From positions 1-54,102 of the IMG/VR virus record IMGVR_UViG_3300048576_000547: a DNA stretch of 54,102 bases; one strand, written 5' to 3'. This stretch comes from a virus (lineage: Duplodnaviria; Caudoviricetes). The position numbers and the translations under genes are program-made. This document shows positions 10,369-53,325 of the stretch, piece by piece (within the stretch, counting starts at the first letter, position 1; each line of letters begins with the position of its first letter). Below the pieces are notes generated by a model, which worked only from the letters and a program-made list of their open reading frames with translations, did no database searches and was not told where the DNA came from.

Positions 10369-10378
10369 GGGAGGCTGC

Positions 10379-16926: not shown

Positions 16927-17271
16927 ATGACAACCTACACCATCTGGCAAGTCGCCGAGGCTGTTGGCGCGACGAAAATGCAAATCGAAAAATGGATATC
17001 GCGTGGGCTTTTTGAACCGTCACAAAGTGTCCCAGAAAAGCGGGCGCGAGAATATATCTTCGATGACGTCGTTCATCTTGCCGCGATAGTCTCTTTGCAA
17101 AAGTTCGGTGTGAGTGTGAAACGCGCCGCGTCTATTGCAGGGGCCGCGCTGAAATCCGCCGATCCGATGGCTCATGCCCTAAAAGGCATTACCGGCGTTT
17201 ATGTGAATATCGAAAACATCCGCAAAGACACAAGAGCATCCCTGAAAAGGGTCGTCGGACAAAATGCCTAA
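16927..17271 (+). CDS. MerR-like winged-HTH protein
   Basis: YTIWQVAEAVGAT...IEKWISRGLFEP...REYIFDDV...LQKFGVS. Confidence 0.7.
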   Translation: MTTYTIWQVAEAVGATKMQIEKWISRGLFEPSQSVPEKRAREYIFDDVVHLAAIVSLQKFGVSVKRAASIAGAALKSADPMAHALKGITGVYVNIENIRKDTRASLKRVVGQNA

Positions 17272-18673
17272 TGGCCGCCACCAAATGGCTAAAAGTATAG
17301 AGCTTTGGCCGATTGGCAAGCTCAAGCCCTATGCGAAAAACCCGCGCACGCACAATGCGGCGCAGGTCGCACAGCTGGCCGCGAGCATCGTCGAATACGG
17401 GTTTACCAATCCGCTTCTTGTGGTCAGCGACGGCACGATCATCGCTGGGCATGGGCGGTTGGAAGCGGCAAAACAGGTCGGGTTGAAGGAAGTTCCGGTC
17501 ATCCTGCTTGATCACCTGACGCCCGCGCAACGCCGCGCCTACGTCATCGCCGACAACCAACTAGCCCTGCAAGCGGGATGGGACGACGCTCTCTTAGCGG
17601 AGGAGATGCACGCGCTGAACGGACTTGGGTTCGATCTATCGCTCACAGGGTTCGACGAAAAAGAAATCGATCAAATCCTCGCCCCCTTGCAGGATGAGCA
17701 GGAGAAGCCGTCCGAGGCTGGCGGCAAGGAAGACGAAGCGCCTGCGCCGCCCAAGCATCCCGTCTCGCGCGAAGGCGACGTCTGGCTGCTTGGCAACCAT
17801 CGCTTGCTTTGCGGCGACAGCACGGATCCCGCCGCCATTGCGCGTTTGATGGGCGGGAAGCAAGCGCACTTGCTGTTCACGTCGCCGCCCTATGGCAACC
17901 AGCGCGATTACACGACCGGAGGCATCAGCGATTGGGACAAGCTGATGCAAGGCGTATTTTCCGTATTGCCGATGCGCGACGATGGTCAGGTCTTGGTCAA
18001 TCTCGGCCAGATCCACAAAGACGGCGAATGGCAGCCTTACTGGCAGGATTGGATCGCGTGGATGCGCGAGAAAAACTGGCGGCGCTTCGGCTGGTACGTT
18101 TGGGATCAGGGGCCGGGTCTTCCGGGTGATTGGAACGGACGCTTCGCCCCCAGCTTCGAGTTCGTCTTTCATTTCAACAAGACGCCGCGCAAACCCAACA
18201 AGATCGTGCCCTGCAAATGGGCGGGGCACGTCATGCACGAAGACGAAGGCGGCTTGCGCGAAAAAGATGGCACGGTTGGCAAATGGACGCACGCCGAACA
18301 GCCCGTTCAGGAAAACAAGATACCGGACAACGTGATCCGCATTACGCGCCACAAAGCGCGCGGCGTCGAAACCGAACACCCCGCCGTGTTTCCCGTGCGT
18401 TTGCCCGCGTTCATCATGCAGGCCTACAGCGCCGAGGGCGAGATTGTTTATGAACCCTTCTGCGGATCGGGAACCACCATCATCGCGGGCGAACAAACAG
18501 GCCGCGCCGTTCGGGCGATGGAGCTTGCGCCCGCTTATGTCGACGTGGCCGTGCGCCGATGGCGCGAGATATTCCCGAACGCGCCCCTTGCGCTTGAAGG
18601 CGAAGGAACAAGTTTTGAAGAAACCGCCGCCGCGCGCGGCATCGATTTGACCCAAGAAAGCGAAGCCTCATGA
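17264..18673 (+). CDS. ParB-N domain fused to N4/N6 DNA methyltransferase (SPPY)
   Basis: PYAKNPRTH, IIAGHGRL, ADNQL; TSPPY, HPAVFP, EPFCGSGTT; start may be ATG 17285. Confidence 0.92.
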   Translation: MPNGRHQMAKSIELWPIGKLKPYAKNPRTHNAAQVAQLAASIVEYGFTNPLLVVSDGTIIAGHGRLEAAKQVGLKEVPVILLDHLTPAQRRAYVIADNQLALQAGWDDALLAEEMHALNGLGFDLSLTGFDEKEIDQILAPLQDEQEKPSEAGGKEDEAPAPPKHPVSREGDVWLLGNHRLLCGDSTDPAAIARLMGGKQAHLLFTSPPYGNQRDYTTGGISDWDKLMQGVFSVLPMRDDGQVLVNLGQIHKDGEWQPYWQDWIAWMREKNWRRFGWYVWDQGPGLPGDWNGRFAPSFEFVFHFNKTPRKPNKIVPCKWAGHVMHEDEGGLREKDGTVGKWTHAEQPVQENKIPDNVIRITRHKARGVETEHPAVFPVRLPAFIMQAYSAEGEIVYEPFCGSGTTIIAGEQTGRAVRAMELAPAYVDVAVRRWREIFPNAPLALEGEGTSFEETAAARGIDLTQESEAS

Positions 18674-19875
18674 CCTTGACCGTTGAGCTTTGGTCGCTCG
18701 ACCGCTTGCTGCCCTATGCCGCAAACGCTCGGACGCATGATGACGCGCAGATTGCGCAAATCGCGGCCAGCATTGCGGAGTTTGGGTTCAATGCGCCTTG
18801 CCTTGTCGATGATCGTGGCGTTTTGATCGCGGGGCATGGCCGCCTTTTAGGCGCGCGGAAACTTGGCTTAACTGAAGTTCCCGTCATTTGCCTCGGCCAT
18901 CTATCAGAAGCGCAGGCGCGCGCTTATCGCATTGCCGACAACCGCATCGCTGAAAATAGCAAATGGGATGAAGCGATGCTTGCGGCAGAGGTGGCGCGGC
19001 TGCAAGAGGAGAACGTCGATCTTTCTCTCCTTGGGTTTGGAGAGGACGAGATCGACGATCTGCTGAATCTTGAAGACGGAAACGAAGGGAACACGGACGA
19101 CGATGCCGTGCCGGAAGTGCCCATCGATCCCGTGACAAAGACCGGCGATGTCTATGTTCTTGGCAATCATCGTTTGCTCTGCGGCGACAGTACCGTTCTC
19201 GAAAACGTCGAAAAGGTTCTCGATGGTGCGCTGGCCGACATGGTATTCACGGATCCGCCTTACAACGTGGATTACGGTAACACGGCCAAGGACAAGATGC
19301 GCGGCAACGACCGCAAGATCATGAACGATAATCTTGGCAAAGGCTTCGAGGCCTTCCTTTATGACGCTTGCGTCAATATGGTGACTGTCTGTAAGGGCGC
19401 GATTTACATCTGCATGTCATCCAGCGAACTGCACACGTTGCAAAAAGCCTTCGTTGCGGCGGGCGGAAAATGGTCGACTTTTGTCATCTGGGCCAAAAAC
19501 ACTTTCACGCTTGGGCGCTCGGACTATCAGCGCCAGTACGAGCCGATCCTCTATGGCTGGAAACAAGGTACCGATCATTTCTGGTGCGGCGCGCGCGATC
19601 AGGGTGACGTGTGGTTTGTGAACAAGCCGACGAAGAACGATCTGCATCCGACCATGAAGCCCGTTGAGCTTGTTGAACGCGCCGTCCGCAACAGCAGCAA
19701 AAGCCGCGACATTGTTCTGGACTGCTTCGGCGGCTCTGGCAGCACGCTCATCGCTTGCGAGAAAGCCGGGCGTCAGGCGCGGCTGATCGAATTGGATCCC
19801 AAATACTGCGACGTGATTGTCAAGCGGTGGGAAGAGTTTACGGGAAAGAAAGCTGAACTGGCTTCGGCATCTTAA
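18670..19875 (+). CDS. ParB-N domain fused to N6-adenine DNA methyltransferase (DPPY)
   Basis: PYAANARTH, IAGHGRL, ADNRI; TDPPYN, HPTMKP, DCFGGSGST. Confidence 0.93.
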   Translation: MTLTVELWSLDRLLPYAANARTHDDAQIAQIAASIAEFGFNAPCLVDDRGVLIAGHGRLLGARKLGLTEVPVICLGHLSEAQARAYRIADNRIAENSKWDEAMLAAEVARLQEENVDLSLLGFGEDEIDDLLNLEDGNEGNTDDDAVPEVPIDPVTKTGDVYVLGNHRLLCGDSTVLENVEKVLDGALADMVFTDPPYNVDYGNTAKDKMRGNDRKIMNDNLGKGFEAFLYDACVNMVTVCKGAIYICMSSSELHTLQKAFVAAGGKWSTFVIWAKNTFTLGRSDYQRQYEPILYGWKQGTDHFWCGARDQGDVWFVNKPTKNDLHPTMKPVELVERAVRNSSKSRDIVLDCFGGSGSTLIACEKAGRQARLIELDPKYCDVIVKRWEEFTGKKAELASAS

Positions 19876-20375
19876 GCACAATCGAACCAGCGCATGCATG
19901 TGGCAAGCAGGTGATCGTAATCGCCGCTTGACGCCTCAGTCATGAATTCTTTGATCTGATCGCCCGGCACGCCTTCCTTGCGTGCGGCGCGCTGGCATTG
20001 CCCAAGCACGGCGAAGGCATTGCCATCGCGGCCGGAAAGCTGGACGCGCACGTCGGGAAAGCGCAAGGCGTTGTCGGGGGCTTTAAAACCGACATAGCGC
20101 GCGTAACCGTATCCTTCGGGATTGATGTAAAGCTGGCGCCTATCGGAAGCCGTGACTTCGATCACACTCACGCGACCGTTAAAGTAGCCGCCTTTGCCGA
20201 GACACCAAGTGCGGTCTGTAAGAAAGGATTGGACAAGGGCATCGTATTCCTCGGCGGTCAAGGCAGTGGTTTCGCTGACCGTGACGACTTCCGCCCTTAG
20301 GCTGTCGTCTCGATAAGCGGCCTCGACATCGGTAATGTCGCGCGGCTTGCTGGCAAAACGCACAAGGATGGTCAT
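19872..20375 (-). CDS. Hypothetical phage protein, apparently two domains
   Basis: N part ends YINPEGYGYARYVG; C part VQLSGRDGNAFAVLG...SGDYDHLL; AAGGA RBS. Confidence 0.8.
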   Translation of the reverse strand: MTILVRFASKPRDITDVEAAYRDDSLRAEVVTVSETTALTAEEYDALVQSFLTDRTWCLGKGGYFNGRVSVIEVTASDRRQLYINPEGYGYARYVGFKAPDNALRFPDVRVQLSGRDGNAFAVLGQCQRAARKEGVPGDQIKEFMTEASSGDYDHLLATCMRWFDCA

Positions 20376-20388
20376 TGGTCGGATCCTT

Positions 20389-20874
20389 TCATTTAACGCG
20401 GTCGATAAGGGTTGCTTTCGCGCCGAGCTTATTTATGAGCGCGTCAAGTGCGCTGCCTCTGTGACCGCCGATATGCCATTCGCTGATCGCTTCGATCAGA
20501 GGAAAGTCCGGCGAGTAGCTGCGACTGTTCTTGTAATTGTAAATCGTGGCGACCTCTTTGCGCGGAAGCATAACAAGCCAATGCGCTTCGGTTTTAAAGC
20601 CGTCGCCTTCCGATGGCTTGCCGAAGATTTCGACAAGGCCTGCATAGGACGCTTTAATGCTTCCGATGTAACAAGTGCCGTCGGCAGGATGCTTTATGAC
20701 TTGGCGCGCCTGCTTGCGCTGACGAAGGCCCGCATCGTAAGCGGCTTCGAGCGCGGCCTTGATGCCCCAAACGCTGCAGTCGTGGAAATCGAGTTCGTCG
20801 CTGTTGCGCGTTTGCAGCGTGCCAATATGAAGATGGTCTGATGCGATTTGTGAAAAAATCTCGTTTCTGGTCAT
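20389..20874 (-). CDS. DUF6900-like protein with C-terminal extension
   Basis: TLQTRNSDELDFHDCSVWGIKAALEAAYDAG; GAGG RBS before ATG 20874. Confidence 0.8.
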   Translation of the reverse strand: MTRNEIFSQIASDHLHIGTLQTRNSDELDFHDCSVWGIKAALEAAYDAGLRQRKQARQVIKHPADGTCYIGSIKASYAGLVEIFGKPSEGDGFKTEAHWLVMLPRKEVATIYNYKNSRSYSPDFPLIEAISEWHIGGHRGSALDALINKLGAKATLIDRVK

Positions 20875-20881
20875 CGCCGCC

Positions 20882-21211
20882 TCACGCTGCTTTGGTTTCG
20901 TGGATCGCTTTTCTGAAATAGCTCTTCCAACCCCTGTCCTGCAGGATGTTGTCGATGTGCTCGGCAATCGCTTCGGGGCTTGTGGGGCCGCCTTTGATGA
21001 AGCTTAACTCGTCGGCGAGATGGCGACCGAAGCGCGCGTCAAGAAGATCGCGCGTATGTTCAGGCGTAAGATCAAAGCGCTCTGCAAGCAGTTTGCTCAT
21101 CGCGTCCCAAACCATCGGCGCATCGTAGTCGCTGCGGACGCTTGTGCCCCAAAATCCCCATTCGGGGTTGGCGGTGGGAAGCGGGTTGTTGTTTTGCATA
21201 ATGGCCTCCAA
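20882..21211 (-). CDS. Hypothetical phage protein
   Basis: PTANPEWGFWGT...RDLLDARFGRHLAD conserved-looking motif; GGAGG precedes the internal ATG at 21199. Confidence 0.75.
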   Translation of the reverse strand: MEAIMQNNNPLPTANPEWGFWGTSVRSDYDAPMVWDAMSKLLAERFDLTPEHTRDLLDARFGRHLADELSFIKGGPTSPEAIAEHIDNILQDRGWKSYFRKAIHETKAA

Positions 21212-31938: not shown

Positions 31939-32288
31939 AGGCTCGCTGCAAATGGCATTTCGGCGGCGGGCCGGATTATTGCTGCTCGTGCGCCGAAAAC
32001 TGTTTGACGTGCTCGAAAGGAGAAACCAACGAGCACGGCGACCGCTGCCCCTACGCCGAGACCGAGCCGCAAACGATGGAAGGCTGGCAAGCGTGGGACG
32101 TTGCGCTTCGCTGTGCGGGGCAGCTTCGCACGGCGCAGCTTGCCGTCATCGGCATCGACATGAACGCCGCCATCCATATCGGAGAATCCCTCGGCTACGA
32201 CCCGACCGGATTGGTCGAGCTTCTCCCCGCCTGCGAGTCAGGAATGGTTTCCGCAATCAACGCAAAAGTTAATGAGGGCTTAAAGTAA
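31926..32288 (+). CDS. gpT-like extension reached by -1 programmed frameshift
   Basis: Slippery A AAA AAC at 31926-31932; the -1 frame stays open to 32288 (WHFGGGPDYC..C...CPY...PQTMEGWQAWD) and is TAATG-coupled to the tape measure gene. Confidence 0.8.
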   Translation, partial: KKRLEARCKWHFGGGPDYCCSCAENCLTCSKGETNEHGDRCPYAETEPQTMEGWQAWDVALRCAGQLRTAQLAVIGIDMNAAIHIGESLGYDPTGLVELLPACESGMVSAINAKVNEGLK

Positions 32289-34813
32289 TGCCCGAACGCA
32301 ATCTTGCAATCCGTCTGTCCGTCATGGATGGCGGCAAGGTCAAGGCCGAGCTGAAGGAGATCGGGGAGTCCGGCGAGAAGTCGCTCAAGAAGATTGAGCT
32401 TGCCGGACAGCCCGCTTCCAAAAGCCTGATCGCCCTGAACGCCGCCGCGAACGATATGAAAGGCGCGGCGATTGGTCTGTCCAGCCAGATGGGGCCGGTC
32501 GGCGCAGGGCTGGCCGCGCTGGGGCCTGCGGGACTTGCGGCAGGGGCGGCCCTTGGCGGTTTGGCTCTGATCTTCAAACAGAGCTACGAAGAAGCGGCAC
32601 TCGCCGAGCAGACCTTCAACCGTTTGCAAGGCGTGCTCAAAGCCACGGGCTATGCCTCCGGCCTGACGGGCAAAGAAATTGCCGAAATGGCCGAGCAGAT
32701 GGAGCATTCGACGCTGACCAGCGCCGAAGACGTCAAAAGCGCCGCCGCAATCATGGCGACGTTCCGTTCCGTGTCCGGCGACACGTTTAAACAGGCGATC
32801 CATTTGGCGCAGGACATGTCGTCCGTGTTTGGGCAGGATCTGCGCTCGTCCGCCACGCAGCTTGGCAAGGCCCTCGAAGATCCCGTGGAAGGCCTGACGG
32901 CCCTGCGGCGCGTGGGCGTTTCGTTTTCGGATTCTCAAAAAGACGTTATTAAGACGCTTGTCGAGACGGGACAAAAGGCCGAAGCGCAAAAGATGATCCT
33001 CGCCGCCCTGCAAGAACAGGTCGGCGGCGCGGGGCAAGCGGAAACGCAAGGTCTGACCGGAGCAACGCACCGCCTGTCGGTCGCTTGGGGCGATATGCTC
33101 AAGGCCATCGGCCAGACCGAAACCGTGGGCGGCACGGCGATGGGCGTGCTGGCAAAGCTCGCATCCACTTTTGAAGTGACGACCGAGTGGTTCAGCAAGG
33201 CTCCGCTTGATGTCCAGTTGCGAAAAGCTAAAAACGAACTGGCCGAAGTGCAAAAGCAGCTTGAATGGCTTCAAAACCTGCCGCCGGTTGTCCAGCCGCT
33301 TTATAAAGACAACACAGCGTTCCGGCAAAAGAAAGCCGCCGAACTTACGGCAGAGATCGAACGCCTGACTAAGGCCGAACAAGCCGAAGCCGACGAACGA
33401 GCCAAAGCTGATGCTGGTCGCGCCAACGCAGAAAAGGAAGGCCGCGCCGATCTTTTGCTCACGACGCGCAAGGGCATCGACGAGGCTTTGGCTAAACTCG
33501 TAAACGATCCCGCCGAGAAAATTACCAAAATTAATGACGAGCTGGCGAAGACAAAAACGAACCTGAACGCTCTGCGCGAAACGGACGGCAGTAATGCGGG
33601 CGCGGTCGATACGGCCATCAAACAGGCCGAAGAGCTTGCCAAACGCCAGATCGACGCCATTCAAAAACCCATTGCCGAAGCGGCGCAAAAGGAAGCGGAT
33701 GCGAACCAAAAGGTTATCGACGATCTGAAGCAAAAACTGCTTGGCATCGGCAATGAACGCCAAGCCTTTATCGATCAGGCCGTTTCGCGGCTTTCTAATA
33801 AGGCGACGGACGCCGATAAAAGCAAGACGAGCGATCTGGCTGGGCGATTATTCGATGAAAAAGCCTTCGCAAGCGCCGAGAAAGTCATCGCCGATCTCGG
33901 CAAGCAGATGGACAAGCTGTCTGACAAGCGCAAAGCGTTTGTTCAGGATGCGGTGGCAAAGCTTCCTGAAACGGCCACGCAAGAGCAAGTCGAGCGCACG
34001 AAGCAAATGGCCGCCTCGCTTTATGACCAGACGCAGGCGCAGGAAAAACTCGACAAGCTGAAACAAGAAGGCAAGCAGCTTACCGATCAATCCAAATCGG
34101 CGACGGAAGCCTACGCCGATCAGATCGCGCGCCTGACTGAAATGCTGAATGCGGGCGCAATCAGTCAGGAAGTCTTCAACAAAGCAAAGGATAAAGCCTA
34201 CGACGAGCAACTGGCCGGTCGTACGGACGGACAGGCCGGTGCGATCCGCGCCTTTCGCGCTTATCAGAAGGAAGGCGAAGATACGGCGGGGGCGGTCGAA
34301 AAAGCGTTTACAAGCGCCATGAAGGCGACCGAGGATGCCATCGTCAACATGGTGACATCCGGCGAGATTAGCCTCAACAGCCTGAACGATCTGGCCAACA
34401 GTATCGTTGCCGACATAACGCGGATGTTCGTGCAGCAATCGATCACTGGCCCGCTTTTCAAAGCGATGGGGTCAAGCCTTGAAGGCGGCGGCTTCTTGTC
34501 AGATATATTCGGCTCGCTCTTTCACGAAGGCGGAACGGTCGGTAGCCCAGCCCCCGCGCGACAGGTTCCTGCTTTCGTGTTTGCGGGAGCGCCCCGCTAT
34601 CATTCAGGCGGGATCGCTGGCCTACGACCAGACGAGGTTCCTGCGATCCTTCAACGAGGAGAAACCGTCCTGCCCAAAAACGCTCGGTCAGGCAATCAGG
34701 TCAATGTGGTGATGCAGATCTCGACGCCGGATGCGAATAGCTTTCGGGCCAGCCAAAGCCAGATCTCGGCGGAGGCTGCTCGAGGGATTAGTCGCGCAAG
34801 GCGAAATCTGTAA
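32288..34813 (+). CDS. Tail tape measure protein
   Basis: 841-aa Ala-rich helical protein; QLGKALEDP..GLTALRRVGV; C-terminal FHEGG...APRYHSGG...DEVPAILQRGE. Confidence 0.93.
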   Translation: MPERNLAIRLSVMDGGKVKAELKEIGESGEKSLKKIELAGQPASKSLIALNAAANDMKGAAIGLSSQMGPVGAGLAALGPAGLAAGAALGGLALIFKQSYEEAALAEQTFNRLQGVLKATGYASGLTGKEIAEMAEQMEHSTLTSAEDVKSAAAIMATFRSVSGDTFKQAIHLAQDMSSVFGQDLRSSATQLGKALEDPVEGLTALRRVGVSFSDSQKDVIKTLVETGQKAEAQKMILAALQEQVGGAGQAETQGLTGATHRLSVAWGDMLKAIGQTETVGGTAMGVLAKLASTFEVTTEWFSKAPLDVQLRKAKNELAEVQKQLEWLQNLPPVVQPLYKDNTAFRQKKAAELTAEIERLTKAEQAEADERAKADAGRANAEKEGRADLLLTTRKGIDEALAKLVNDPAEKITKINDELAKTKTNLNALRETDGSNAGAVDTAIKQAEELAKRQIDAIQKPIAEAAQKEADANQKVIDDLKQKLLGIGNERQAFIDQAVSRLSNKATDADKSKTSDLAGRLFDEKAFASAEKVIADLGKQMDKLSDKRKAFVQDAVAKLPETATQEQVERTKQMAASLYDQTQAQEKLDKLKQEGKQLTDQSKSATEAYADQIARLTEMLNAGAISQEVFNKAKDKAYDEQLAGRTDGQAGAIRAFRAYQKEGEDTAGAVEKAFTSAMKATEDAIVNMVTSGEISLNSLNDLANSIVADITRMFVQQSITGPLFKAMGSSLEGGGFLSDIFGSLFHEGGTVGSPAPARQVPAFVFAGAPRYHSGGIAGLRPDEVPAILQRGETVLPKNARSGNQVNVVMQISTPDANSFRASQSQISAEAARGISRARRNL

Positions 34814-34974
34814 CGTCTTGCTTTGTCACAAATCTTATTTTGTTGACCAAAGAATAGGTTAACGCCATGCTAAGGGCATGAAGGTTGGAGATTCATTCTT
34901 CTTCCTTCTGAGGCTTAAGAACCTCACATGTGCGGTATGACATCGTCCGTCAAGGATGTCGCCTTTCGGCTTAA

Positions 34975-35056
34975 CGCCGGAGGGCGATGCTGTATGTCCA
35001 GCCCGAAAGGGTAAAGAGTATCGCGCCGTCCTTGTGTCGGTTTTGAACCTCCGGCG
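34975..35056 (+). ncRNA. C4 (P1)/CI (P4)-like cloverleaf antisense RNA candidate
   Basis: Closing stem CGCCGGAGG/CCTCCGGCG; inner stem GCGATGCT/AGTATCGC capped by CCC-GAAA-GGG; small hairpin with TCCTTG loop; unpaired TTTGAA; complementary sites upstream and downstream. Confidence 0.55.
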
Positions 35057-35100
35057 ACCAGCGGAATTTGCCGCTGGCCGATACTTCAAACCGAGGGAGA

Positions 35101-35271
35101 ATGCAGATGCATGACATTGGTGCTTGGCAGCTTTGCGGCAACTTTTTTACGGCCTATTTGGGCAACCCTAATATATTGATTCTTTTAATTCTTCTTTTGC
35201 TCGGCGTTGGCACGAGCCGAAGGTTCATGGTTATTGCGAAAAACTTAAATTTAGGGTTAAGTAAACGTTAA
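35101..35271 (+). CDS. Small hydrophobic ORF downstream of the RNA element
   Basis: GAGGGAG RBS (ATG 35101 or 35107); ILILLILLLLGVG stretch; 3' end runs into the CtrA box, so it may be a remnant. Confidence 0.35.
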   Translation: MQMHDIGAWQLCGNFFTAYLGNPNILILLILLLLGVGTSRRFMVIAKNLNLGLSKR

Positions 35272-35272
35272 C
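35256..35272. promoter_or_regulatory. CtrA binding box upstream of the chemoreceptor gene
   Basis: GTTAA-GTAAACG-TTAAC matches TTAA-N7-TTAAC on both strands; about 105 bp before the ATG. Confidence 0.75.
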
Positions 35273-35377
35273 TCGTTCCACGTTTATTTAACACCCTCCC
35301 GTCCTGATAGAAAAACTGTAACGACCACAATTGAAAAATGTTCTTTCTATATGGTCGACAAATAATGGAGTCTTCCC

Positions 35378-37072
35378 ATGCGTTTTTGGAATAATTCAAG
35401 CCTGCTCGCTAAACTATTCATCCCGCAAATACTGGTTATCTGCGCTTGTGTGGTTATCATCGTAAGCGGATCGAAAGGATTTGATACGATCACAGGTCTT
35501 ACGGCGCGCATTATTGACAATGACATTGCGCGTACTCTTCTTGTTTTCGAAGCGAAAGACGAATTGGCGCAGGTCGCGTTAGCCGGTCGCAGTGCGGCGG
35601 GAACAACCGATAAGGAAGCGCTTAAATCGTTTGAAGCTGTTTTCACGGAACACGGTCAAAAAGCGCAAAAGATCGTAACCAAACTGGCAGCGGTAATTCA
35701 AGATCCCAACAGGCACAAAATCATCACGACTATCGATGGGGACATACAGAAGTATTTAGCCGCCTATGACCAATATTTTAACAGCCGCCACAATGAAGCG
35801 CCGCGCGAAACCATCGAGGCGCTTTCAAGCGAAACGGTGAAAATACGCAAAGGCATCCTTGAGAATTTCTCCGTGCTTGTGGAGGCGTATAAAGTAACGG
35901 TCAATACACGCCGAGAAGAAATAGTTGCCACAGGAAAAGAAACGTCGAATATGAACTTGTGGGTCTCCGTTGTCGGACTTCTCTTATCCTATGGTTTGCT
36001 TGGCTGGATCACGCTCAGGCAGGTGATCCGTCCATTGAATGCTGTCATTCGCAATCTCGATCAGGTTGCTGAAGGAAACCTTGATATTTCTGTCGAAGCA
36101 ACGGAACGCCACGATGAGGTCGGAAAACTGATGCGTTCCCTTCAAGTCTTCAAAGATAACGCGCTTAAGGTCGGCGCTTTGCAGCGAGAACAAAAAGAAG
36201 CCGAAGAACGCGCGGAAAAAAATCGCAAAACAGCCATGCTAAAAATGGCTGATGATTTTGAATCCAGCGTTCTGAGTGTTGTTAAGGGCGTAGCGGCATC
36301 TTCAACAGAAATGCAAGCCACGGCTCAGAATATGTCAGAGGTCGCAGGCACGACAAGCAACCAAGCGACTTCAGTTGCGGCGGCAACGACACAAGCAAGT
36401 TCAAACGTGGAAACGGTCGCTTCGGCTGCGGAAGAATTGTCTGCTTCCGTAAACGAAATCACAAGCCATGTTACGGATGCCGCGCGTATGGCCCAACAAG
36501 CCGCCGACGAGTGCAAAAGTACGGAAGAGATGGTGGAGAAATTGGCGTCGTCATCTCTGAAAATTGGTGAGATCGTCGATCTCATCAATCAGATCGCGGC
36601 AAAGACCAATCTTTTAGCACTTAACGCCACGATTGAAGCTGCCCGTGCTGGTGAGGCTGGCAAGGGTTTTGCCGTTGTTGCCAGCGAGGTGAAGCATCTT
36701 GCCAACCAAACGGCCAAGGCGACCGACGAAATCGGGACGCAAGTCGCTTCCATTCAAAGTGACACGAACAACGCCGTTGGCGCTATCAGGGCAATCTCCG
36801 GCACAATAGACAAAGTGCGGAACATCTCCTCAAGCATTGCAACCGCCGTCGAAGAACAAGGATCTGCGACAAGAGAAATCGCGCGGAATGTCCAACAGGC
36901 TTCTCAAGGTACGCATGAGGTTGCGGAGAACATCCATTTGGTCACCCAAGGAGCAACACAGACCGGAGCAGCGGCGGAACAGGTACTGGCAACGGCGGGC
37001 GAACTGGCCCACAACGCCGAAGTCCTGCACAAAGAGGTCGAGAACTTTCTGACGAATGTTCGTGCGAACTAA
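35378..37072 (+). CDS. Methyl-accepting chemotaxis protein (2 TM, 4HB-like sensor, HAMP, signalling domain)
   Basis: Two TM helices; HAMP (PL...VAEGNL...RHDEVGKL); [37 protein letters not shown] hairpin. Confidence 0.96.
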
Positions 37073-37129
37073 ATCTCTTTGTCCGCATCGCTGATCAACA
37101 GCAATTCCTTTTGATGCAAGGCAATTGAA

Positions 37130-37546
37130 GTGAAGCCAATTTTGTTCCCAAAGGGCAATCGTGATCCCATTGATATTTACGTGGGGAAACGGTTGAGACT
37201 ACGTCGCAGCCTTATCGGAGTAAGCCAGGCGCAACTTGGTAAAGCGGTCGGGATTTCGTTCCAGCAAATCCAAAAGTACGAGCGCGGCATCAATCGCATG
37301 GGCGCAAGTCGCCTTTATCAATTTGCAGGGCTGCTTCGCGTTTCCGTGTCTTACTTTTTTGATGACATTGAGACAGAACAAAAGACAGAGGAAGCACTGC
37401 AGAATAAGGTCGTTCCCCTGAAGGCAGCCCCAAAACAGATGCACAACAAAGAAACGTTGCAACTTGTTCGCGCCTTTCACGCCATCTCTGACAAAAAGCA
37501 GCGCAATAAAGTGATGTCTCTTATCAAAACGATGGCTATTGAATAG
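37130..37546 (+). CDS. Alphaproteobacterial XRE regulator (PraR/PhrR/StaR-like)
   Basis: DPIDIYVGKRLRLRR...SQAQLG.AVGISFQQIQKYERGINRMGASRL...ETLQLVRAF..I. Confidence 0.88.
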   Translation: MKPILFPKGNRDPIDIYVGKRLRLRRSLIGVSQAQLGKAVGISFQQIQKYERGINRMGASRLYQFAGLLRVSVSYFFDDIETEQKTEEALQNKVVPLKAAPKQMHNKETLQLVRAFHAISDKKQRNKVMSLIKTMAIE

Positions 37547-37561
37547 TTTTCCTGAGGCAGC

Positions 37562-38161
37562 ATGACATTTCACGAAGTGCAATTTCCGCCCGACATTGCT
37601 TATGGAGCATCGGGTGGGCCGGAGTATTTGACGTCGGTCGTCTCGATGGCTTCTGGTTTTGAGCAGCGCAACGCCAACTGGTCGGCGGCACGCCTTAAAT
37701 GGAATGTTGCGTCTGGGTTAAAACACCAGACGCAGCTTAACACTTTGATTGCCTTCTTCCGCGCGCGCAAAGGAAAGGCTTACGGTTTCAGATTCAAGGA
37801 CTGGACGGATTATAAGGCGACCGCCCAAACCCTCGGTACAGGCGATGGGACAACAAAAGCCTTTCAGCTTGTCAAAAGCTACACCTCTGGTGCAGGTAAC
37901 GAGACGCGCACGATCACCAAGCCTGTGCTTGGCACGGTCGCCCCCTATCTTGGGGGCGTCAAACAAACATCCGGCTGGTCGATCAATACGGCCACAGGCA
38001 TTTTGACCTTCAGCATTGCCCCTGCACAAGGCGTGGCGGTCACGGCGGATTTTGAGTTCGACGTGCCCGTGCGCTTCGACACCGACAGCATGGCCGTCAG
38101 TATCGAGCAATTCGATCTCCATCAATGGTCGGACATTCCCGTTATAGAGATCCGCGTATAG
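37562..38161 (+). CDS. Distal tail protein (DUF2460, GTA-like)
   Basis: FHEVQFP...GGPE, FFRARKG.AYGFRFKDW.D, FEFDVPVRFDTD. Confidence 0.93.
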   Translation: MTFHEVQFPPDIAYGASGGPEYLTSVVSMASGFEQRNANWSAARLKWNVASGLKHQTQLNTLIAFFRARKGKAYGFRFKDWTDYKATAQTLGTGDGTTKAFQLVKSYTSGAGNETRTITKPVLGTVAPYLGGVKQTSGWSINTATGILTFSIAPAQGVAVTADFEFDVPVRFDTDSMAVSIEQFDLHQWSDIPVIEIRV

Positions 38162-45915: not shown

Positions 45916-46084
45916 CCCCGCTTGCGTCTGCCCACCGATTAAAGAATACAGTCGGGAGTTTCAGGAAAAGCTTGCAAAAGAGATTGATGTAGCACCGGAA
46001 AACGGAGCATATCCGCAGGCGATCTTAGACTACGCTTTACTCAGAGAACAGTTAGCTTCCTGTCTGAAGAAGGACAATTTTTGA
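45836..46084 (+). CDS. Putative o-spanin lipoprotein (Rz1-like)
   Basis: Overlaps the i-spanin in another frame; lipobox LNA-C; CPPIKEYSREFQ...DYALLREQL..C. Confidence 0.75.
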   Translation: MPNFAPRWTLLALALISLNACGTANYNPACVCPPIKEYSREFQEKLAKEIDVAPENGAYPQAILDYALLREQLASCLKKDNF

Positions 46085-48316
46085 ATCAACCGCACCTGTT
46101 CCCATCATGATATGGTAATGTTTTATATAGCCGCATTCACTAAAAATCTTCTCGAACAACTCAAAAAATTTGTTTTCATCAATCTCGACTTCATCGACAT
46201 AACTTGCAGCATCGGAATGAGATTCTCTATCCATATAACGTCCAAATGCTGTATATGAAATATCCCCCTGATTAGCCTTGACTAGGTGATTTAAAGCGGA
46301 CGCCAGTTTATCTTCACCATCAATAAACGAGAAGAATTGCTCAAGAATATTCCTCATTGTGTTTGCAAGGAGGATCTTCGAGGCAGCACCATCTTTTATG
46401 TCTCTCAGCAATTGCCAGTAGGTTTCGTAATTATTTTTAATTTCTTTTTTTGACATGGGCTGAATATAGGTCGTCTTTTCCCTTTTTGTAATTCTAAACA
46501 AGCGATATTGTTTAGAAAGATCTTCGCCTTTGAAGTAGCCTAACAGCTCATGCAAAAAATAAAGATGGTGCGTAAGAACAAATATCTGGCGGTAAGAACC
46601 ATCTTTAAAAAACTTTTCTTTAATCAGCATCCCCACATCGAACACGAGATTAAATGATAAACTCGAAATCGGATCGTCAATAACTATTATTCGATTTGAC
46701 GTGCCTCCATTGCTCTCAATATCGGACACTCCGACACAAGCCTCCAGATAATACAGGAAGGAAATGAGCGTCTTTTCTCCCTCGCTAAGTGTCTTAAATG
46801 CATAGTCTTCGGGTGGACGATCATCACGAACAACCCTGTAAACAAATCTATTATCATCCTCTAAATTAACGCGTTGAATACTGAACCCATCCAGCCCAAA
46901 AGATCTCAAGCGGCTGTTGATGCGCCTAACGGACTCTTCAACATTTTTTGTCTTTTTTTGGTTCTCAATAACAATCTTTTCCAAAGAGCGTTCTTTTTCC
47001 ATGATGGAAGCCAGTTCCTTGGAAGCTTCTTCGTTCTTTTTGTTCAGCGCTGCTGATTGCAGTACATATGAGCTAATGTCAGCCTCATATTTTAGATGGA
47101 TAAGACCCCAGAAAGCGCGTTTTATCTGCTCTTTTGCAGTCGTCAAATTCTTCAATTTTTCATTAAAGGCGTTAAGCTCTTTGTTGTGATCAGATATTAT
47201 CTCGTTTATGCGCTCAACGAATGGCATTGTTGGAGCAAGAAGAACTTCCTCACCTAACGTTGCCAATTTCTTTTCGACAGCCTTCAGGTTCTTGTTTAAA
47301 CTATTTTGAAGATCAGTTGCGCAATCTAAAAATCCGCTGCGACTACTAATCTCAGCATCATCCCTATATTTTTGAAGAAGGGCCACAGTGCTTTCGTATT
47401 CCGCCCTATATGTTTCGTTGTGTTTTTGTATTTCGATTTTTTTGTTTTGATATGTAGCATCAACATGCGCCTTGATCTTAGTTCTAAGATCAGCGTCTAT
47501 CTTCTGTTTGCAGAATGGACATACGTCAGTTTTATCCAAATAGGATTCGATTCCTTTATTAAGCCACGTCTCATGGTTCAGCTTGGCAATCAGGTCACTT
47601 AAGTAGCTGTCTTGCGATCCAACAATTTTATCCTGAAAGATTAAATTGTTTTCTATGTCAGACACGAAAGGCTCAACCATTTGGAGCAGTGGCTTTTCTG
47701 CGGTGTCGCCAGCCGTCAGCTGCTCGTATTCGGTCTTTAATCGTTCAAGTTCGGCAGGTACATTTTCTGCTTGTTTCTCAGGAGAAGATGACAATAACAC
47801 CTGCTTCAGAAATGCGTCCTTGCTTCCCATGTATCCCATAAGACAGGGTCGCAACGATGTGTTTTCATACGCCTGTTTCTCACCCCAAACTTTCTCAGAA
47901 AGAGCATTCCTGTTTTGCATCCCGTCCGATTGGCAATCTGCAATAATTTTAGCCTGAGCCTCTCGAAGTGGAGATTGTTTTAGCAATTCAGAGCGAGCAT
48001 TTTTGATATTTGTCTCAGCTTCAGTATTGGCCTTGTCTAGCGTAAAGATACCCTTCTGGCAGTCCGTCAAAAGAAAATTATCTTCGACATATTTTTCATT
48101 ATAGACAAGAAATTCCGGCTTAATCAGGTTTGGCTTAAATTTTATATCGCAAAAGGTATAATCGCCAATCTTCTCTCCTTGAAAATACAGGAACTGCGCC
48201 AGAGTAGATTTGCCTGTTCCGTTGAGTCCGTAAAAGATGTTAACGCGCTTAAGTTCATCAAGAGTAACAGGAGATGAATAGCTGGCCACAGAATGAAGTT
48301 TTATCTCTTGAACCAT
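46052..48316 (-). CDS. rloC: RloC-like anticodon nuclease (Rad50/SMC-type ABC ATPase, zinc hook, HEPN)
   Basis: GLNGTGKST, CPFC hook within coiled coil, LSEGEK, IVIDDPISSL, LTHH, NTMRNILE and RYMDRESH; AT-rich; downstream of res. Confidence 0.8.
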   Translation of the reverse strand: MVQEIKLHSVASYSSPVTLDELKRVNIFYGLNGTGKSTLAQFLYFQGEKIGDYTFCDIKFKPNLIKPEFLVYNEKYVEDNFLLTDCQKGIFTLDKANTEAETNIKNARSELLKQSPLREAQAKIIADCQSDGMQNRNALSEKVWGEKQAYENTSLRPCLMGYMGSKDAFLKQVLLSSSPEKQAENVPAELERLKTEYEQLTAGDTAEKPLLQMVEPFVSDIENNLIFQDKIVGSQDSYLSDLIAKLNHETWLNKGIESYLDKTDVCPFCKQKIDADLRTKIKAHVDATYQNKKIEIQKHNETYRAEYESTVALLQKYRDDAEISSRSGFLDCATDLQNSLNKNLKAVEKKLATLGEEVLLAPTMPFVERINEIISDHNKELNAFNEKLKNLTTAKEQIKRAFWGLIHLKYEADISSYVLQSAALNKKNEEASKELASIMEKERSLEKIVIENQKKTKNVEESVRRINSRLRSFGLDGFSIQRVNLEDDNRFVYRVVRDDRPPEDYAFKTLSEGEKTLISFLYYLEACVGVSDIESNGGTSNRIIVIDDPISSLSFNLVFDVGMLIKEKFFKDGSYRQIFVLTHHLYFLHELLGYFKGEDLSKQYRLFRITKREKTTYIQPMSKKEIKNNYETYWQLLRDIKDGAASKILLANTMRNILEQFFSFIDGEDKLASALNHLVKANQGDISYTAFGRYMDRESHSDAASYVDEVEIDENKFFELFEKIFSECGYIKHYHIMMGTGAVDSKIVLLQTGS

Positions 48317-48336
48317 CTCCTTCCTCCATGACTTTC

Positions 48337-51270
48337 TTAAAAAGAAAATGTGGATTGTATCCGTTCATCAACAGGCCTTAGTTTCGCATATTCCAGCATG
48401 TCCTTAATGGATGCGCCTTTGTCGCGCCATTCGTAGAAAACGCCTTCACCAAGCAACACATAGTGCCACTCTGCATTCCCGCGTTGTTCGGGCGCAAGGC
48501 TGTTCAAACGGTCACACCATGAAACGGCAGCGCGTTTTTTCCGTTTAACATTCGGTGTGTTGACTTGTCCTTGTGCTTTCGTCTCGACGAGATAGATTTT
48601 ATCCTCACAACGGACAAGAAAATCGGGGTAGTAGAATGCCGGAAGTCCATCTTCTTTGACATAACGCAACCTTGTGAAGATGTGCTTCTGTTCATTGAGC
48701 TTGCAGAAAGCATCGACGGAACCATCTCGATCAACCGTCTCGATGAAGGCCCGTTCAAGACCGCCGCTACGAGAGGGATATGGCAAGCGCAAATAAATGC
48801 TCTTGCTGACAGCCAAAGACGAACTCTCTCTCATTGTCAGTTTTGGGACTTCTGATAACAGACGATGGGTCACTTCTGCATCTGCGGTAATTGCCGTTTC
48901 CTCAGCCGCCAAAAGCTGTCGCGCCCAAACCTTCATGACGTGTTCTGTTACTGGATCGACAAGCAGGATGCGCCAGTTTTCATCTGTAAACGGATCAAAA
49001 GCCCTCTCAAAAAGGCGTGTTCGGATATACTCGTCTATTCCGTTCGCTAGATATGCCCGATTAATTTGGATATGCGGAAATTCGGTATTCTTCTTGAATT
49101 TTGTAGAGCTGTCCGTAAGCGGCTGGCTTAAAGCCTCCGTAATTCGACGAACAACACGCCCGAGGTAGTCGTTGTATCCCGTGGCCGTCATCACGCCACC
49201 GTTGACGCGATAGTCACCAAAACGGGTCTTGTCCTGAACGTCCTCGGAATGGAACTTTTCTCCGATCCCAATCATTGCCTTGAGTTTATCAACCGAAAAG
49301 GTCGTAAAGGATTCAAGAGAAGAAACAGCAATTTCTCGCGTTTGCACTTCTTCTTCTCTCTCGCGGAGAATGAAGGGAATGGCAAAATCATAGTCCTGAT
49401 AATTGGGGCGCATCCCTATAGCCACAAGGTCGCCATTAGCGGAACCACCAGTGTCATCGTCATCTTCGATCTCACCAACGAGACCCTCTTTAATCAATTC
49501 TTCGTAAAACTCGATGAAAGCTGGATGTTCGACAATCGATAGAATGTCGATCATGCTTCCCGGCGTTTTACCTTCTCGAATGAGCTTGCGATTATCTCGC
49601 TTGATGTCGTCAAAGTCTGTGCCACGCCACATAAGGCGAAGACCGCGTCCAATCGTTTGTTCCAGCAAAATCCCAGCAGCAGAAGCGCGAAGCGGGACAA
49701 TGACGCAGATGTTGTTAACGTCAAACCCTTCGCGAAGCATTAACACGCTAATAACGACGCGTGGGTGGGCGTGGCGATCAACATCGAAAAGACGCTCACG
49801 AAGAACCTTCCACTCGTCCATCTTAAGTTCGCCTTTGCGGTTGGAATCAACACGCAAAATCTCTTCTTGTCCTAAACCCTCTAGTTTCAGAAAGTCTTCG
49901 ATCAAGGGCGTTACGGAGGTATCTTCGCAGACCACGAGCATCTTCGGGTGACGGTCGGGATCAAGCTTGGCAAAATCTTCTTCAAGCTTCCGAAGCTTTG
50001 TTAGCCCTGCGCGAAGCATGATGCGTTGGCCCTCGGCAAGCTGCGGATTTCCGTTTTCATCACGATATGCCTTGAACTCCAATTGTTCGTCGGACAGCGC
50101 ACCAATTTCGCTACGCTTGTCAAGAACAAGGGACTTAACCAGCCCAAGTTTCATCGCCGTTTTGAGATCGAAGTCCACCACAATATGGGGGAAGAAAGAC
50201 TTTTTAGCATTTTTGCCAGTTCCGACTTCATTGTAAGGCGTTGCCGAGAAGTCAACTTGGACAAAACGGTCTGCCTTTGGCTCAGAAATCAGTGAAAGGC
50301 TTTTCTGCCATTCAACTTCAGAAACTTCTCCTTCACGTTTGAACTCGTGAATATGGTGGGCCTCGTCATTAAAGACCATTAGGCTCGGAAGCTCACATAG
50401 ATAATTCAAAATGCCGCCGCGCTCAAACCGCCTATTCAGCACATTAAGATCGTTGCCCTGTGAGGTTCCGGGCGTCAATGGGAGAAGATCGCTGACAACG
50501 TCTTTTGCATCAGGGCGCGTGCCGGGAGCAAAGACCATTTCTTGCTGCCCATCATCTTCGCCTTCTTCGCTCAAAACATGCCAGTTAGCGATGGCTATAA
50601 CGCCCCCAGAAGTGACTTTTCTCCCAATCTCTTCCTTGGGGCACACAGCCCCCTGAACAAAGCGAAATACTTCGTCGCGGTGTGCGGCTGGGATGAAAAG
50701 CTCTTGAAACGTCGAAAGATCGGACGTGACGAAATTGCGCTTTCCATCACGCTCCTTGCCCTCAAAAGCATCGCGCAAGCGGTCATAAACAATCAGCCCC
50801 GGCGCAACTATCAAGAAATTCTTGGTGTATCGCGGATTGCTGGGGTCACGGTTGGCGTTGAGGACTTGCCAAACCATAAACGCCTGCAAAACCCACGTTT
50901 TGCCTGTACCTGTTGCCATCTTGAGGCAGTATTTGGGACAATTGTTTTTTGGCGCGCTAATAATGTCTGCTGCTTGCGCGCTTGTCATCAAGACCTCAGG
51001 AGCCACGTTCTCATAAAGCCCCTTAAGTGTCGTCATACCAAGAACTTCGTGGGCGTAAATGACATTTAGGATTGCGGTTTTTTGCCCCTCATGAAAATTG
51101 TAAGGGCGCGTGTCTAGAAAATCTTGCTGAAACCACCATTTCAAAAGCTCGGCGGTTGTATCGCTCACTTGTGACAGTATAGGGGCGTCTCCATTCTCAA
51201 GGCCAACGCAAGCCTCAGCAACACGAGCAGAAAGAAGGCGAGCGAGGGTAAGGTCATTTATGCTTGCCAT
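48337..51270 (-). CDS. res: Type III restriction endonuclease subunit
   Basis: MATGTGKT, NDEAHH, FSATP, LREGFDV, EQTIGRGLR; C-terminal PDF...VETK nuclease. Confidence 0.92.
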   Translation of the reverse strand: MASINDLTLARLLSARVAEACVGLENGDAPILSQVSDTTAELLKWWFQQDFLDTRPYNFHEGQKTAILNVIYAHEVLGMTTLKGLYENVAPEVLMTSAQAADIISAPKNNCPKYCLKMATGTGKTWVLQAFMVWQVLNANRDPSNPRYTKNFLIVAPGLIVYDRLRDAFEGKERDGKRNFVTSDLSTFQELFIPAAHRDEVFRFVQGAVCPKEEIGRKVTSGGVIAIANWHVLSEEGEDDGQQEMVFAPGTRPDAKDVVSDLLPLTPGTSQGNDLNVLNRRFERGGILNYLCELPSLMVFNDEAHHIHEFKREGEVSEVEWQKSLSLISEPKADRFVQVDFSATPYNEVGTGKNAKKSFFPHIVVDFDLKTAMKLGLVKSLVLDKRSEIGALSDEQLEFKAYRDENGNPQLAEGQRIMLRAGLTKLRKLEEDFAKLDPDRHPKMLVVCEDTSVTPLIEDFLKLEGLGQEEILRVDSNRKGELKMDEWKVLRERLFDVDRHAHPRVVISVLMLREGFDVNNICVIVPLRASAAGILLEQTIGRGLRLMWRGTDFDDIKRDNRKLIREGKTPGSMIDILSIVEHPAFIEFYEELIKEGLVGEIEDDDDTGGSANGDLVAIGMRPNYQDYDFAIPFILREREEEVQTREIAVSSLESFTTFSVDKLKAMIGIGEKFHSEDVQDKTRFGDYRVNGGVMTATGYNDYLGRVVRRITEALSQPLTDSSTKFKKNTEFPHIQINRAYLANGIDEYIRTRLFERAFDPFTDENWRILLVDPVTEHVMKVWARQLLAAEETAITADAEVTHRLLSEVPKLTMRESSSLAVSKSIYLRLPYPSRSGGLERAFIETVDRDGSVDAFCKLNEQKHIFTRLRYVKEDGLPAFYYPDFLVRCEDKIYLVETKAQGQVNTPNVKRKKRAAVSWCDRLNSLAPEQRGNAEWHYVLLGEGVFYEWRDKGASIKDMLEYAKLRPVDERIQSTFSF

Positions 51271-51272
51271 GA

Positions 51273-53321: not shown

Positions 53322-53325
53322 TAGA

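Follow-up and report, generated by a model that had tools for sequence, protein, structure and literature searches.

A C4-like cloverleaf RNA heading a cargo cassette among the tail genes of a provirus

Known C4-type RNAs and the anatomy of the cloverleaf

According to the accessible part of PMC5320573, the RNA c4 is excised from a longer transcript by RNase P; its segment b' covers a ribosome site and its segment a' gives specificity. The definitions of the families C4 and c4-a1b1 date from Weinberg et al. 2010, where they are listed for Proteobacteria and phages and for gamma-Proteobacteria and phages, respectively (PMC2864571, accessible part), and none of the orders attributed to that work in the accessible part of PMC5320573 is alphaproteobacterial. 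Here we analyse a cloverleaf RNA in the provirus record IMGVR_UViG_3300048576_000547 (Duplodnaviria; Caudoviricetes), the whole of which, 54,102 bases, is called the window below. A first-pass annotation had read it as a C4- or CI-like antisense RNA with flanking targets ahead of a chemotaxis moron. The RNA indeed heads a low-GC insert with a small hydrophobic open reading frame (ORF), a gene for a methyl-accepting chemotaxis protein (MCP) and an XRE gene. We consider it probable, on balance, that 34843-35271 forms one conserved module, consisting of a promoter, a structured leader, an antisense RNA of the sRNA-Xcc1/C4 type (some 82-86 nt long) and a membrane ORF of 54 aa, and that the RNA acts on its own transcript.

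In phage P1 (AF234172) the promoter P1c4 is followed by a1 (48255-48261), b1 (48269-48276), c4 (48343-48419), a2 (48423-48429) and b2 (48452-48459); icd starts at 48470 and ant comes next. The sites are 7-8 nt long, and the record labels a1 and b1 as 'putative'. In the Rfam alignment a1 of P1 lies in a hairpin loop with b1 just behind, and C4 is followed by CCACC. The letters CCA reportedly aid recognition of c4 by RNase P. Rfam groups C4 and c4-a1b1 in clan CL00128 and sRNA-Xcc1 in none. As a side observation, Rfam IsrK gives a sub-threshold match in P1, 35 bits versus 50, at the a1/b1 region (L340 1394-1475; L-numbers are our labels of retrieved relative loci); IsrK looks like kin of the c4-a1b1 leader.

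Two further described groups are relevant. sRNA-Xcc1 stems from a Xanthomonas integron cassette and is found in APSE phages upstream of an ORF6N gene (10.1101/2020.03.17.996009, accessible part), and in Xylella it adjoins C4 and IsrK (PMC12189769, accessible part). Among the sRNA-Xcc1 papers listed, titles and abstract openings do not treat Alphaproteobacteria or self-targets; supplements could hold lists. The C4-derived 'Group 1' small RNAs of Acinetobacter baumannii are cut from longer transcripts, have multiplied and are proposed to be adapted to targets other than antirepressors (PMC5320573, accessible part). These C4-shaped RNAs resemble the window RNA in their proposed non-antirepressor targets, but as far as the same part states they match the Rfam C4 motif and are chromosomal and multi-copy, not the leader of a prophage cassette.

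The cloverleaf on the plus strand of the window is real (Table 1). Its 9-bp closing stem, the 8-bp inner stem, the GAAA hairpin, the single-stranded linker and the separate CCAGCGG/CCGCTGG hairpin downstream were all found where they had been placed; the second hairpin also exists, its loop being the 9-nt TCCTTGTGT instead of the TCCTTG proposed before. Hairpin 1 is composed of the 8-bp stem, an internal loop and the GAAA-capped stem, and the closing stem with ACCA behind it resembles an acceptor stem. The 93-nt stretch has a minimum free energy (MFE) of -38.9 kcal/mol compared to a shuffle mean of -27.7 (z -3.58), which none of 200 shuffles equalled. A terminator scan of the window did not call the hairpin at 35058-35077.

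Table 1. Features at the tape-measure/DUF2460 junction of the window (RBS, ribosome-binding site)
Feature	Position	Strand	Remarks
Tape-measure gene	32288-34813		stop codon 34811-34813
Promoter-like site	TTGACC 34843-34848, 17-nt spacer, CATGCT 34866-34871	+	30 nt after tape-measure stop
Leader hairpin A	GAAGG 34880-34884 with CCTTC 34904-34908	+	
a1 hairpin	34909-34926	+	stem TGAGG/CCTCA, loop CTTAAGAA; a1 TTAAGAACC 34915-34923
b1 by position	34926-34932	+	ACATGTG; partner of hairpin-2 loop
Leader hairpin C	34939-34960	+	GACATC/GATGTC; holds CAAGGA 34951-34956; kept in 5/5 close relatives
Alternative-fold leader segment	34955-34970	+	complements 5' arms of closing stem and hairpin 1
Cloverleaf RNA	34975-35056	+	fold, covariation, R1 match
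Closing stem P1	34975-34983 with 35048-35056	+	CGCCGGAGG with CCTCCGGCG; 9 bp, perfect
Hairpin 1, inner/outer stem	34984-34991 with 35017-35024	+	8 pairs, one G-U
Tetraloop hairpin	35002-35011	+	CCC-GAAA-GGG
Hairpin 2	35025-35028 with 35038-35041	+	loop TCCTTGTGT = b', 9 nt, 35029-35037
Single-stranded linker	35041-35047	+	TTTTGAA = a'
ACCA after closing stem	35057-35060	+	tRNA-like 3' end
Downstream hairpin	35058-35064 with 35071-35077	+	CCAGCGG-AATTTG-CCGCTGG; T run behind absent
a2 candidate	35085-35094	+	TTCAAACCGA; abuts RBS; pairs with 35037-35047, one bulged U
RBS	35093-35099	+	GAGGGAG; 7 nt before ATG 35107; purine-rich block at same place in relatives
Small ORF	35107-35271	+	54 aa, one hydrophobic helix (MHDIGAWQLC...)
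MCP gene	35378-37072	+	Pfam MCPsignal 1.9e-33, HAMP
XRE-family helix-turn-helix gene	37130-37546	+	Pfam HTH_3 1.8e-09
DUF2460, hub, host-specificity genes	37562 onward		

Relatives, covariation and comparison with Rfam families

A relative of the DUF2460 protein is encoded by 72 viral loci. When 34600-37600 was compared with the retrieved loci by blastn, homology across the RNA was present only in L019, L046 and L025 (L046 and L025 being the same here); the covariance model R1 added L018, giving four matches among the 66 loci L015-L080, with L081-L086 lying outside this search. In phage and plasmid collections, blastn of the intergenic stretch gave no match. A first DNA pattern was discarded, as only two of its 12 loci held a real RNA, both true sRNA-Xcc1. 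The conserved-core pattern ATGTCCANNCCNNANGGNTAAAG was found at 13 viral and at least 120 genome loci; among the matches listed, the genome loci are by record title mostly from Alphaproteobacteria (Sphingomonadales, Rhodospirillales, Magnetococcales, Rhodopseudomonas, Devosia, Caulobacter and others) and a few are labelled Verrucomicrobia, Acidobacteria or Desulfovibrio. R1 was built from 63 sequences and used with a cut-off of E<=0.001. None of the 13 viral pattern loci escaped it, and of the 120 genome loci listed it recovered 99; the other 21 resemble chance hits of the pattern in unrelated phyla. In the window R1 gives a single match, 34974-35057 (+), with 81 bits, other members of the subgroup scoring 76-82 bits. 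A metagenome scan with a 17-mer returned 119 loci, one of which (L299, identical to L046) carries the RNA according to a pattern check of the adjacent letters; the remainder, judged by the same letter pattern, were taken as chance matches.

Covariation across homologs, a check proposed in the first-pass annotation, was found: in the 63-sequence alignment RNAalifold predicts 28 pairs, 22 of which show compensatory changes on both sides. The core pattern used for picking sequences fixes the inner hairpin, and trimming by a closing-stem search favours that stem; in the helices not selected on, compensation is seen at every one of the 8 pairs in the outer stem of hairpin 1 and at 5 of the 6 in hairpin 2. 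The frequent G-U pairs, which would be A-C on the other strand, identify the plus strand as the RNA strand. That the stretch is not an RNA gene at all is hardly credible. It would then be a coding stretch (ORF 34956-35114 on the plus or 34859-35089 on the minus strand), a tRNA remnant or a DNA site, e.g. an attachment site, and indeed the two short ORFs overlap the element and the cloverleaf-like shape ends in CCA. Against this, the stems change on both sides across the 63 sequences, ARAGORN finds neither tRNA nor tmRNA in the window, the plus-strand ORF has no Pfam match and a 1-nt linker deletion in L046 would shift its frame.

Behind the closing stem, 49 of 94 distinct members have a CCA no more than 5 nt away, compared to 6% of 6-nt windows further downstream. 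In 65 of 90 members a hairpin of 5 bp or more follows, beginning at most 12 nt behind the stem; 18 of these have a T-rich tail. In a subclade (L018, L105, L125, L136, L138, L161, L163, L165, L176) hairpin 1 has an additional hairpin, some 25 nt long, inserted on its 5' side; R1 gives only 30-36 bits there or misses the RNA entirely (L125, L161). An alternative leader pairing, in which the alternative-fold segment binds the 5' arms of both the closing stem and hairpin 1, could compete with the cloverleaf in the window. It is present in both the MFE and the centroid structure of a 297-nt fold and is lost in the 128-nt context, where the cloverleaf is the winning fold. In the family, duplexes with the own leader average -20.4 kcal/mol versus -16.7 for cross-member pairs, and the leader pairing appears in the MFE structure of 27 of 90 members. 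As the consensus fold of leader and 5' half from 74 sequences predicted no common structure, the alternative leader hairpin stays a single-sequence observation.

Rfam searches point to sRNA-Xcc1 as the nearest described family. The best of 8 matches at permissive thresholds in 34700-35450 is sRNA-Xcc1 (RF02221) with 38 bits, below its gathering score of 53; the alignment covers the model in full (positions 1-87 of 87), with E 5.5e-5 for 751 bases and 9.4e-7 per record. The window RNA thus does not reach the gathering score, while the structural alignment is full-length and detection works both ways: the sRNA-Xcc1 model scores the relatives L215, L116 and L180 at 38-39 bits, and R1 detects true sRNA-Xcc1 copies (L004, two in L014) at 24-25 bits with E about 1e-4. 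Four results count against a membership in known families, and against C4 in particular. At gathering thresholds Rfam finds nothing in the whole window; C4 (RF01695, gathering score 45 bits) gives no match at E<=10, either in 34700-35450 or in the whole record (9 candidates scored); nor does c4-a1b1 (RF03163) at E<=10; and R1 scores P1 c4 at 9.8 bits only (E 0.5). As a positive control, P1 c4 reaches 68.8 bits with the Rfam C4 model.

Of the C4/CI-like cloverleaf proposed before, the architecture, the part order of P1 and the upstream covariation in relatives stood, whereas membership in Rfam C4 or c4-a1b1 did not. The likeness comprises the closing stem, the tetraloop hairpin, the second hairpin with a large pyrimidine-rich loop, the linker and the CCA-type letters; by position, a1 is located in a hairpin loop with b1 behind, both upstream of the RNA; promoter, a1, b1, RNA, a2 candidate and a small ORF follow each other as in P1; and in the relatives of the window the specificity letters covary with the upstream sites. 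Unlike C4, the window RNA shows no detectable sequence membership and has a longer hairpin 1 with an internal loop and a conserved ATGTCCA...TAAAG frame. It lies in the tail-gene block, not in an immunity region, and lacks b2 and an antirepressor, the 54-aa ORF, MCP and XRE taking the place of icd-ant; by the searches run the small ORF is unrelated to icd. Its a2 is positioned 28 nt behind the RNA, past a hairpin, in P1 only 4 nt. The helices, the CCCGAAAGGG hairpin and the UUUUGA linker are common to the window RNA and sRNA-Xcc1, and upstream of each of the three true copies lies a complement of its linker, 7-9 nt long. Apart from the lower score, the window RNA differs in its context, a prophage tail-gene block where no integron setting was seen (no search aimed at attC sites or an integron integrase was made), and in that sRNA-Xcc1 is published, by title and abstract opening, as a trans-acting virulence-linked small RNA and not as a self-targeting leader RNA. 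By these sequence comparisons the window RNA appears C4-like in anatomy and closer kin to sRNA-Xcc1, and in architecture it fits a diverged member of the phage antisense RNAs of sRNA-Xcc1/C4 type.

Complementary sites in the leader and at the ribosome-binding site

The leader starts with a promoter-like site that a consensus promoter scan did not call because its -10 hexamer is weak. All 7 subgroup sequences have the hexamers TTGACC and CAT(T/G)(C/T)T 17 nt apart, with a spacer of variable sequence. Leader hairpin A is longer in relatives with both sides altered (GAAGGCAAG/CTTGCCTTC in L046, AGCAGAT/ATCTGC in L019; read off the alignment informally).

We analyzed the a1 and b1 sites in an alignment of five distinct subgroup sequences (window, L019, L046, L180, L215) from the a1 hairpin to the start codon. 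In relatives the a1 position perfectly complements the linker of the same sequence over 8-9 nt: GGTTTTGAA, GGTTTGAA and GGTTCTTAA, as linkers, face the a1 sites TTCAAAAC(C), TTCAAACC and TTAAGAACC, respectively. At the b1 position CACAAG, CGTGAG and CACGAG face the loops CTTGTG, CTCACG and CTCGTG. Changes on both sides were observed for 2 of 9 pairs in a1:a' and 3 of 7 in b1:b', i.e. 5 of 16 pairs are compensated, and 97.4% of the 77 cells are paired. Sliding the partners by 1-3 columns left only 19-52% paired, and none of 500 shuffles reached the observed value on four of five measures; on the fifth, further pair types, 24 of 500 did. As they come from five related sequences, the numbers should be taken as indicative and not as a probability.

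The imperfect upstream site that had been noticed near 34915 is the positional homologue of a1; in the window alone it does not stand above chance. The second upstream target proposed, CAAGGA for the hairpin-2 loop, had to be abandoned: the letters are present, but they lie in the conserved leader hairpin C, whose loop is TAAGGA or TATGGA regardless of the hairpin-2 loop of the relative, without covariation, and the b1 site by position is 34926-34932. The downstream target running into GAGGGAG exists, its pairing likewise being without covariation and not above chance.

The window itself deviates from its relatives. Its a1 pairs with the own linker at 8 of 9 positions counting one G-U, with one A-G mismatch, and its b1 keeps 6 of 7 pairs including two G-U, plus one U-U. 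The a1 of the window is the exact complement of the L215 linker, not of its own, and it looks as if leader and RNA of the window recombined from two specificity types. As positional homologues a1 and a2 appear real in the alignment, yet weakened in this copy. Could the element be a decaying relic whose fold is kept or not yet lost, whose targets have drifted or recombined, and whose cassette is driven by the promoter alone? The window is the only one of the five subgroup members with unpaired a1 and b1 cells, its a1 fits another linker type and none of its target sites stands above chance. The cloverleaf, however, is intact and scores as high as in the other subgroup members, and, counting G-U, 8 of 9 and 6 of 7 pairs survive the mismatches; the P1 sites themselves span only 7-8 nt. 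We therefore regard a relic as improbable.

In the preferred reading, the leader would be transcribed from the promoter-like site at 34843-34871 and the cloverleaf would be released from it, with a 5' end cut by RNase P as for P1 c4. The released RNA would then pair with its own transcript. Its linker, perhaps together with the loop UCCUU against AGGGA, may bind 35085-35099. With a2 paired in this way beside the ribosome site, the small ORF would be translated less and MCP and XRE, by polarity, expressed less; pairing with a1/b1 would feed back on the leader. Control of the small-ORF ribosome site by the RNA is plausible. Since a1 and b1 contain a mismatch each and a2 a bulge, the switch is probably weakened in the window.

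Several results weigh against this mechanism. The two unpaired a1/b1 cells of the subgroup both belong to the window (A-G in a1, U-U in b1). Across 5 relatives 89% of the 47 a2:a' cells are paired, but none of 10 pairs has changed on both sides; L215 with its different linker has no a2 at the matching place, and L018 retains TCAAACCGA despite an unrelated linker. The a' and b' segments of the window fit its own flanks no better than the flanks of other members (fractions 0.12, 0.64, 0.25, 0.16), and the duplex of the RNA 3' half with the translation start region, -15.2 kcal/mol, equals that of shuffled sequences (-15.1; fraction 0.46). Among the relatives only L046 stands out in this respect (-16.1 versus -10.0; fraction 0.013); it also has a perfect 9-nt a2 match. 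The a2 of the window retains 10 of 11 positions. In the distant L018 there are two 7-nt complements of the hairpin-2 loop, one in the start-codon region and one upstream. Ranked by duplex energy over 16-nt plus-strand windows of the window alone, a2 falls into the top 1.5% for the linker, CAAGGA into the top 2.7% for the loop and the best upstream linker site into the top 5%. The flanking sites are meaningful only because position-matched relatives support them.

A trans-acting RNA with targets on superinfecting relatives (immunity or exclusion between phages with the same cassette type) or on host mRNAs would agree with the differing a'/b' segments of the subgroup and their matched a1/b1, as expected of heteroimmune types, and sRNA-Xcc1 is called trans-acting in the title of Chen et al. 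2011. Such a role is very improbable here: the window has no second site combining complements of a' and b', its best single sites for the linker lie in coding regions, and no antirepressor-type gene (Rha, Bro, KilA, Ant) was found among the 44 scanned of 56 kept ORFs of at least 70 aa. The two rejected sites can pair with the linker if one G-U is allowed. They are copies of the 11-mer TTTAAAACCGA at 20082-20092 (+) and 20588-20598 (-), within 19872-20375 (opposite to the ORF strand) and 20389-20967 (on the ORF strand), far from start codons; the matches were taken as chance. Loop complements in the window, 8 versus 4.85 expected, are not above chance (10 of 100 shuffles reach 8), and no b2 site was found in the window.

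Self-target sites were also compared across the family, using 90 members with distinct 3' halves. The segment a' was taken as the linker plus two bases on each side and b' as the hairpin-2 loop plus its 3' arm; the longest perfect complement within 130 nt upstream or downstream was compared with the flanks of every other member, a conservative null since relatives share flanks. Upstream complements of at least 7 nt were found for a' in 59 members (null 4.6%) and for b' in 72 (4.5%), downstream complements in 23 (3.9%) and 20 (4.1%), respectively. Either upstream site is present in 82 of 90 members (null 8.8%) and both in 49 (0.3%); downstream the corresponding numbers are 30 (7.6%) and 13 (0.35%).

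To classify the downstream genes, the longest complete ORF (90 aa or more) beginning no further than 160 nt downstream was taken; 51 loci remained after exclusion of members with short flanks or without such an ORF. Pfam matches were Rha or Bro-N (antirepressor-type; 5 loci), OMP beta-barrel (4), ECF sigma (4), KH (2), HTH_3 (2), GYF_2 (1), short-chain dehydrogenase (1) and a weak Pox_D5 (1); 31 loci have no match, 30 of them also lacking a PHROG match at 1e-5. All five Rha/Bro-N members (L154, L178, L134, L088, L092) possess a1, b1, a2 and b2 of 6-9 nt each as in P1, with a2 located 6-10 nt and b2 30-45 nt behind the RNA. Members before OMP, ECF sigma, KH or small ORFs carry a1/b1 of 6-10 nt and downstream runs of mostly 3-6 nt; those with only the upstream pair before OMP, ECF sigma or KH are L177, L169, L160, L106, L151, L110, L158 and L139, and 7-nt downstream runs among upstream-pair-only members occur for a' in L106 and for b' in L098. 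The lack of a clear a2/b2 in these classes suggests that control of a downstream ribosome site is perhaps not their job, which is a further argument against our mechanism.

The RNA might accordingly act only on its own leader via a1/b1, without directly blocking the RBS of the small ORF, either as a cis pseudoknot or kissing fold or by trans feedback on new transcripts, and so set the output of the whole cassette. The family numbers are in line with this, upstream complements being general and downstream ones exceptional; the OMP, ECF sigma, KH and small-ORF classes carry a1/b1 only, a1/b1 covary and a2 does not, and the alternative leader pairing competes with the closing stem. On the other hand, the eroded sites of the window are precisely a1 and b1 while a2 is largely kept, the role of a1/b1 is unsettled even in P1, and downstream targets were sought within 130 nt and as perfect runs only. 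The class comparison lends this reading serious weight; we still consider a purely leader-directed element rather unlikely, and prefer the module in which the RNA would also act on the small ORF.

The cassette, its cargo and the wider family

The record is a provirus with a lambda-type siphovirus plan and distal tail genes resembling those of gene transfer agents. A serine recombinase and an XRE repressor-like gene are located at the left end, followed in a Pfam-level scan by terminase, portal, protease, capsid and tail tube. The 2.7-kb insert between tape-measure and DUF2460 genes, which comprises the cloverleaf element, the small ORF, the MCP gene and the XRE gene, has a GC content of 0.44-0.51 compared to 0.56-0.62 in both flanks. 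The junction (window 34814-37561) is a cargo slot that is empty in L015, L017, L026 and L027, where blastn shows the DUF2460 gene adjoining tape-measure homology with nothing between. Occupied slots (window, L018, L019, L046, L180) hold the RNA and the small ORF, alone or with XRE, hemerythrin or MCP+XRE.

The small ORF follows the RNA directly in all 6 distinct subgroup relatives with 49-62% identity and the shared motif M-x-D-I-S...C..F.KAY...P.IL...GVGVS.RF; the alignment places its start at ATG 35107, not 35068. Neither Pfam nor PHROG matches it. Among 1.84 billion representative proteins, a profile search returned only 6 cluster representatives, and a word-based search gave one near-identical protein. 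Compared with type I toxin-antitoxin systems, a single-helix 54-aa peptide is present and complementarity in the start region is not above chance. Behind the small ORF, L180 has no cargo and the DUF2460 gene comes next, L019 and L018 carry the XRE gene, L046 a 74-aa ORF and a hemerythrin gene, and the window MCP and XRE. The XRE gene shows DNA homology to L019 and L018, and the L019 protein also contains HTH_3; the MCP gene is absent from L019, L018, L046 and L180, and no MCP relatives were found in viral contigs. Promoter, RNA and small ORF thus appear from the alignments to be the constant part, and L180 with nothing more than RNA and small ORF indicates that the MCP is a later insertion. 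The earlier suggestion that the RNA was left behind when the moron displaced an antirepressor is not supported, given the same small ORF after the RNA in every relative and a relative without cargo.

The stretch or part of it is contained in 20 of 22 listed public runs. Four RNA-library runs were viewed as contigs, in which ends, strand and level are not readable, and the libraries may hold DNA. Contigs from two samples of one study cover 34891-35095 and 34890-35315, further RNA-library pieces cover 35223-35495, 36407-36628 and 37016-37181, and two equal-sized runs under other studies contain a contig at 35428-35688. The first two contigs start 19-20 nt past the -10-like hexamer, a weak hint of a transcript from the cassette's own promoter. 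In the four runs no contig covers 33500-34889 or 37182-38200, although contigs cannot prove silence.

Elsewhere in the window three large genes on the minus strand (46055-53495) contain AAA_13, ResIII helicase and N6_N4 methylase domains; they look like a restriction/defence module inside the provirus or just beyond it. The early region carries three DNA methylase genes on the plus strand (10337-11380, 17264-18670, 18670-19872), one C-5 and two N6/N4, one of the latter being fused to a ParB-like N-terminal domain.

In summary, the kind of RNA is already known; the clade, its tail-cassette setting with swapped cargo and the class with a1/b1 only were not found described in the searchable literature. 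Tentatively, and as a possibility we would not yet call likely, we propose a large uncatalogued clade of the C4/sRNA-Xcc1 type that comprises the classical four-site form before Rha/Bro-N genes and a domesticated upstream-only form. The differing a'/b' segments would represent specificity types, the window being a recombinant of two, and the domesticated form would serve as an autoregulatory expression platform for OMP, ECF sigma, KH and a prophage cassette with swapped cargo (nothing, XRE, hemerythrin or MCP+XRE). One narrow pattern alone gave 99 R1-confirmed genome loci among the matches listed, mostly in Alphaproteobacteria. If true, this would link two separate Rfam families, sRNA-Xcc1 and C4, and extend them to Alphaproteobacteria, and R1 could annotate about a hundred loci that lie below Rfam thresholds. 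The split between four-site and upstream two-site members bears on the role of a1/b1, and in the provirus one could test whether an immunity RNA of phages drives a moron instead of an antirepressor.

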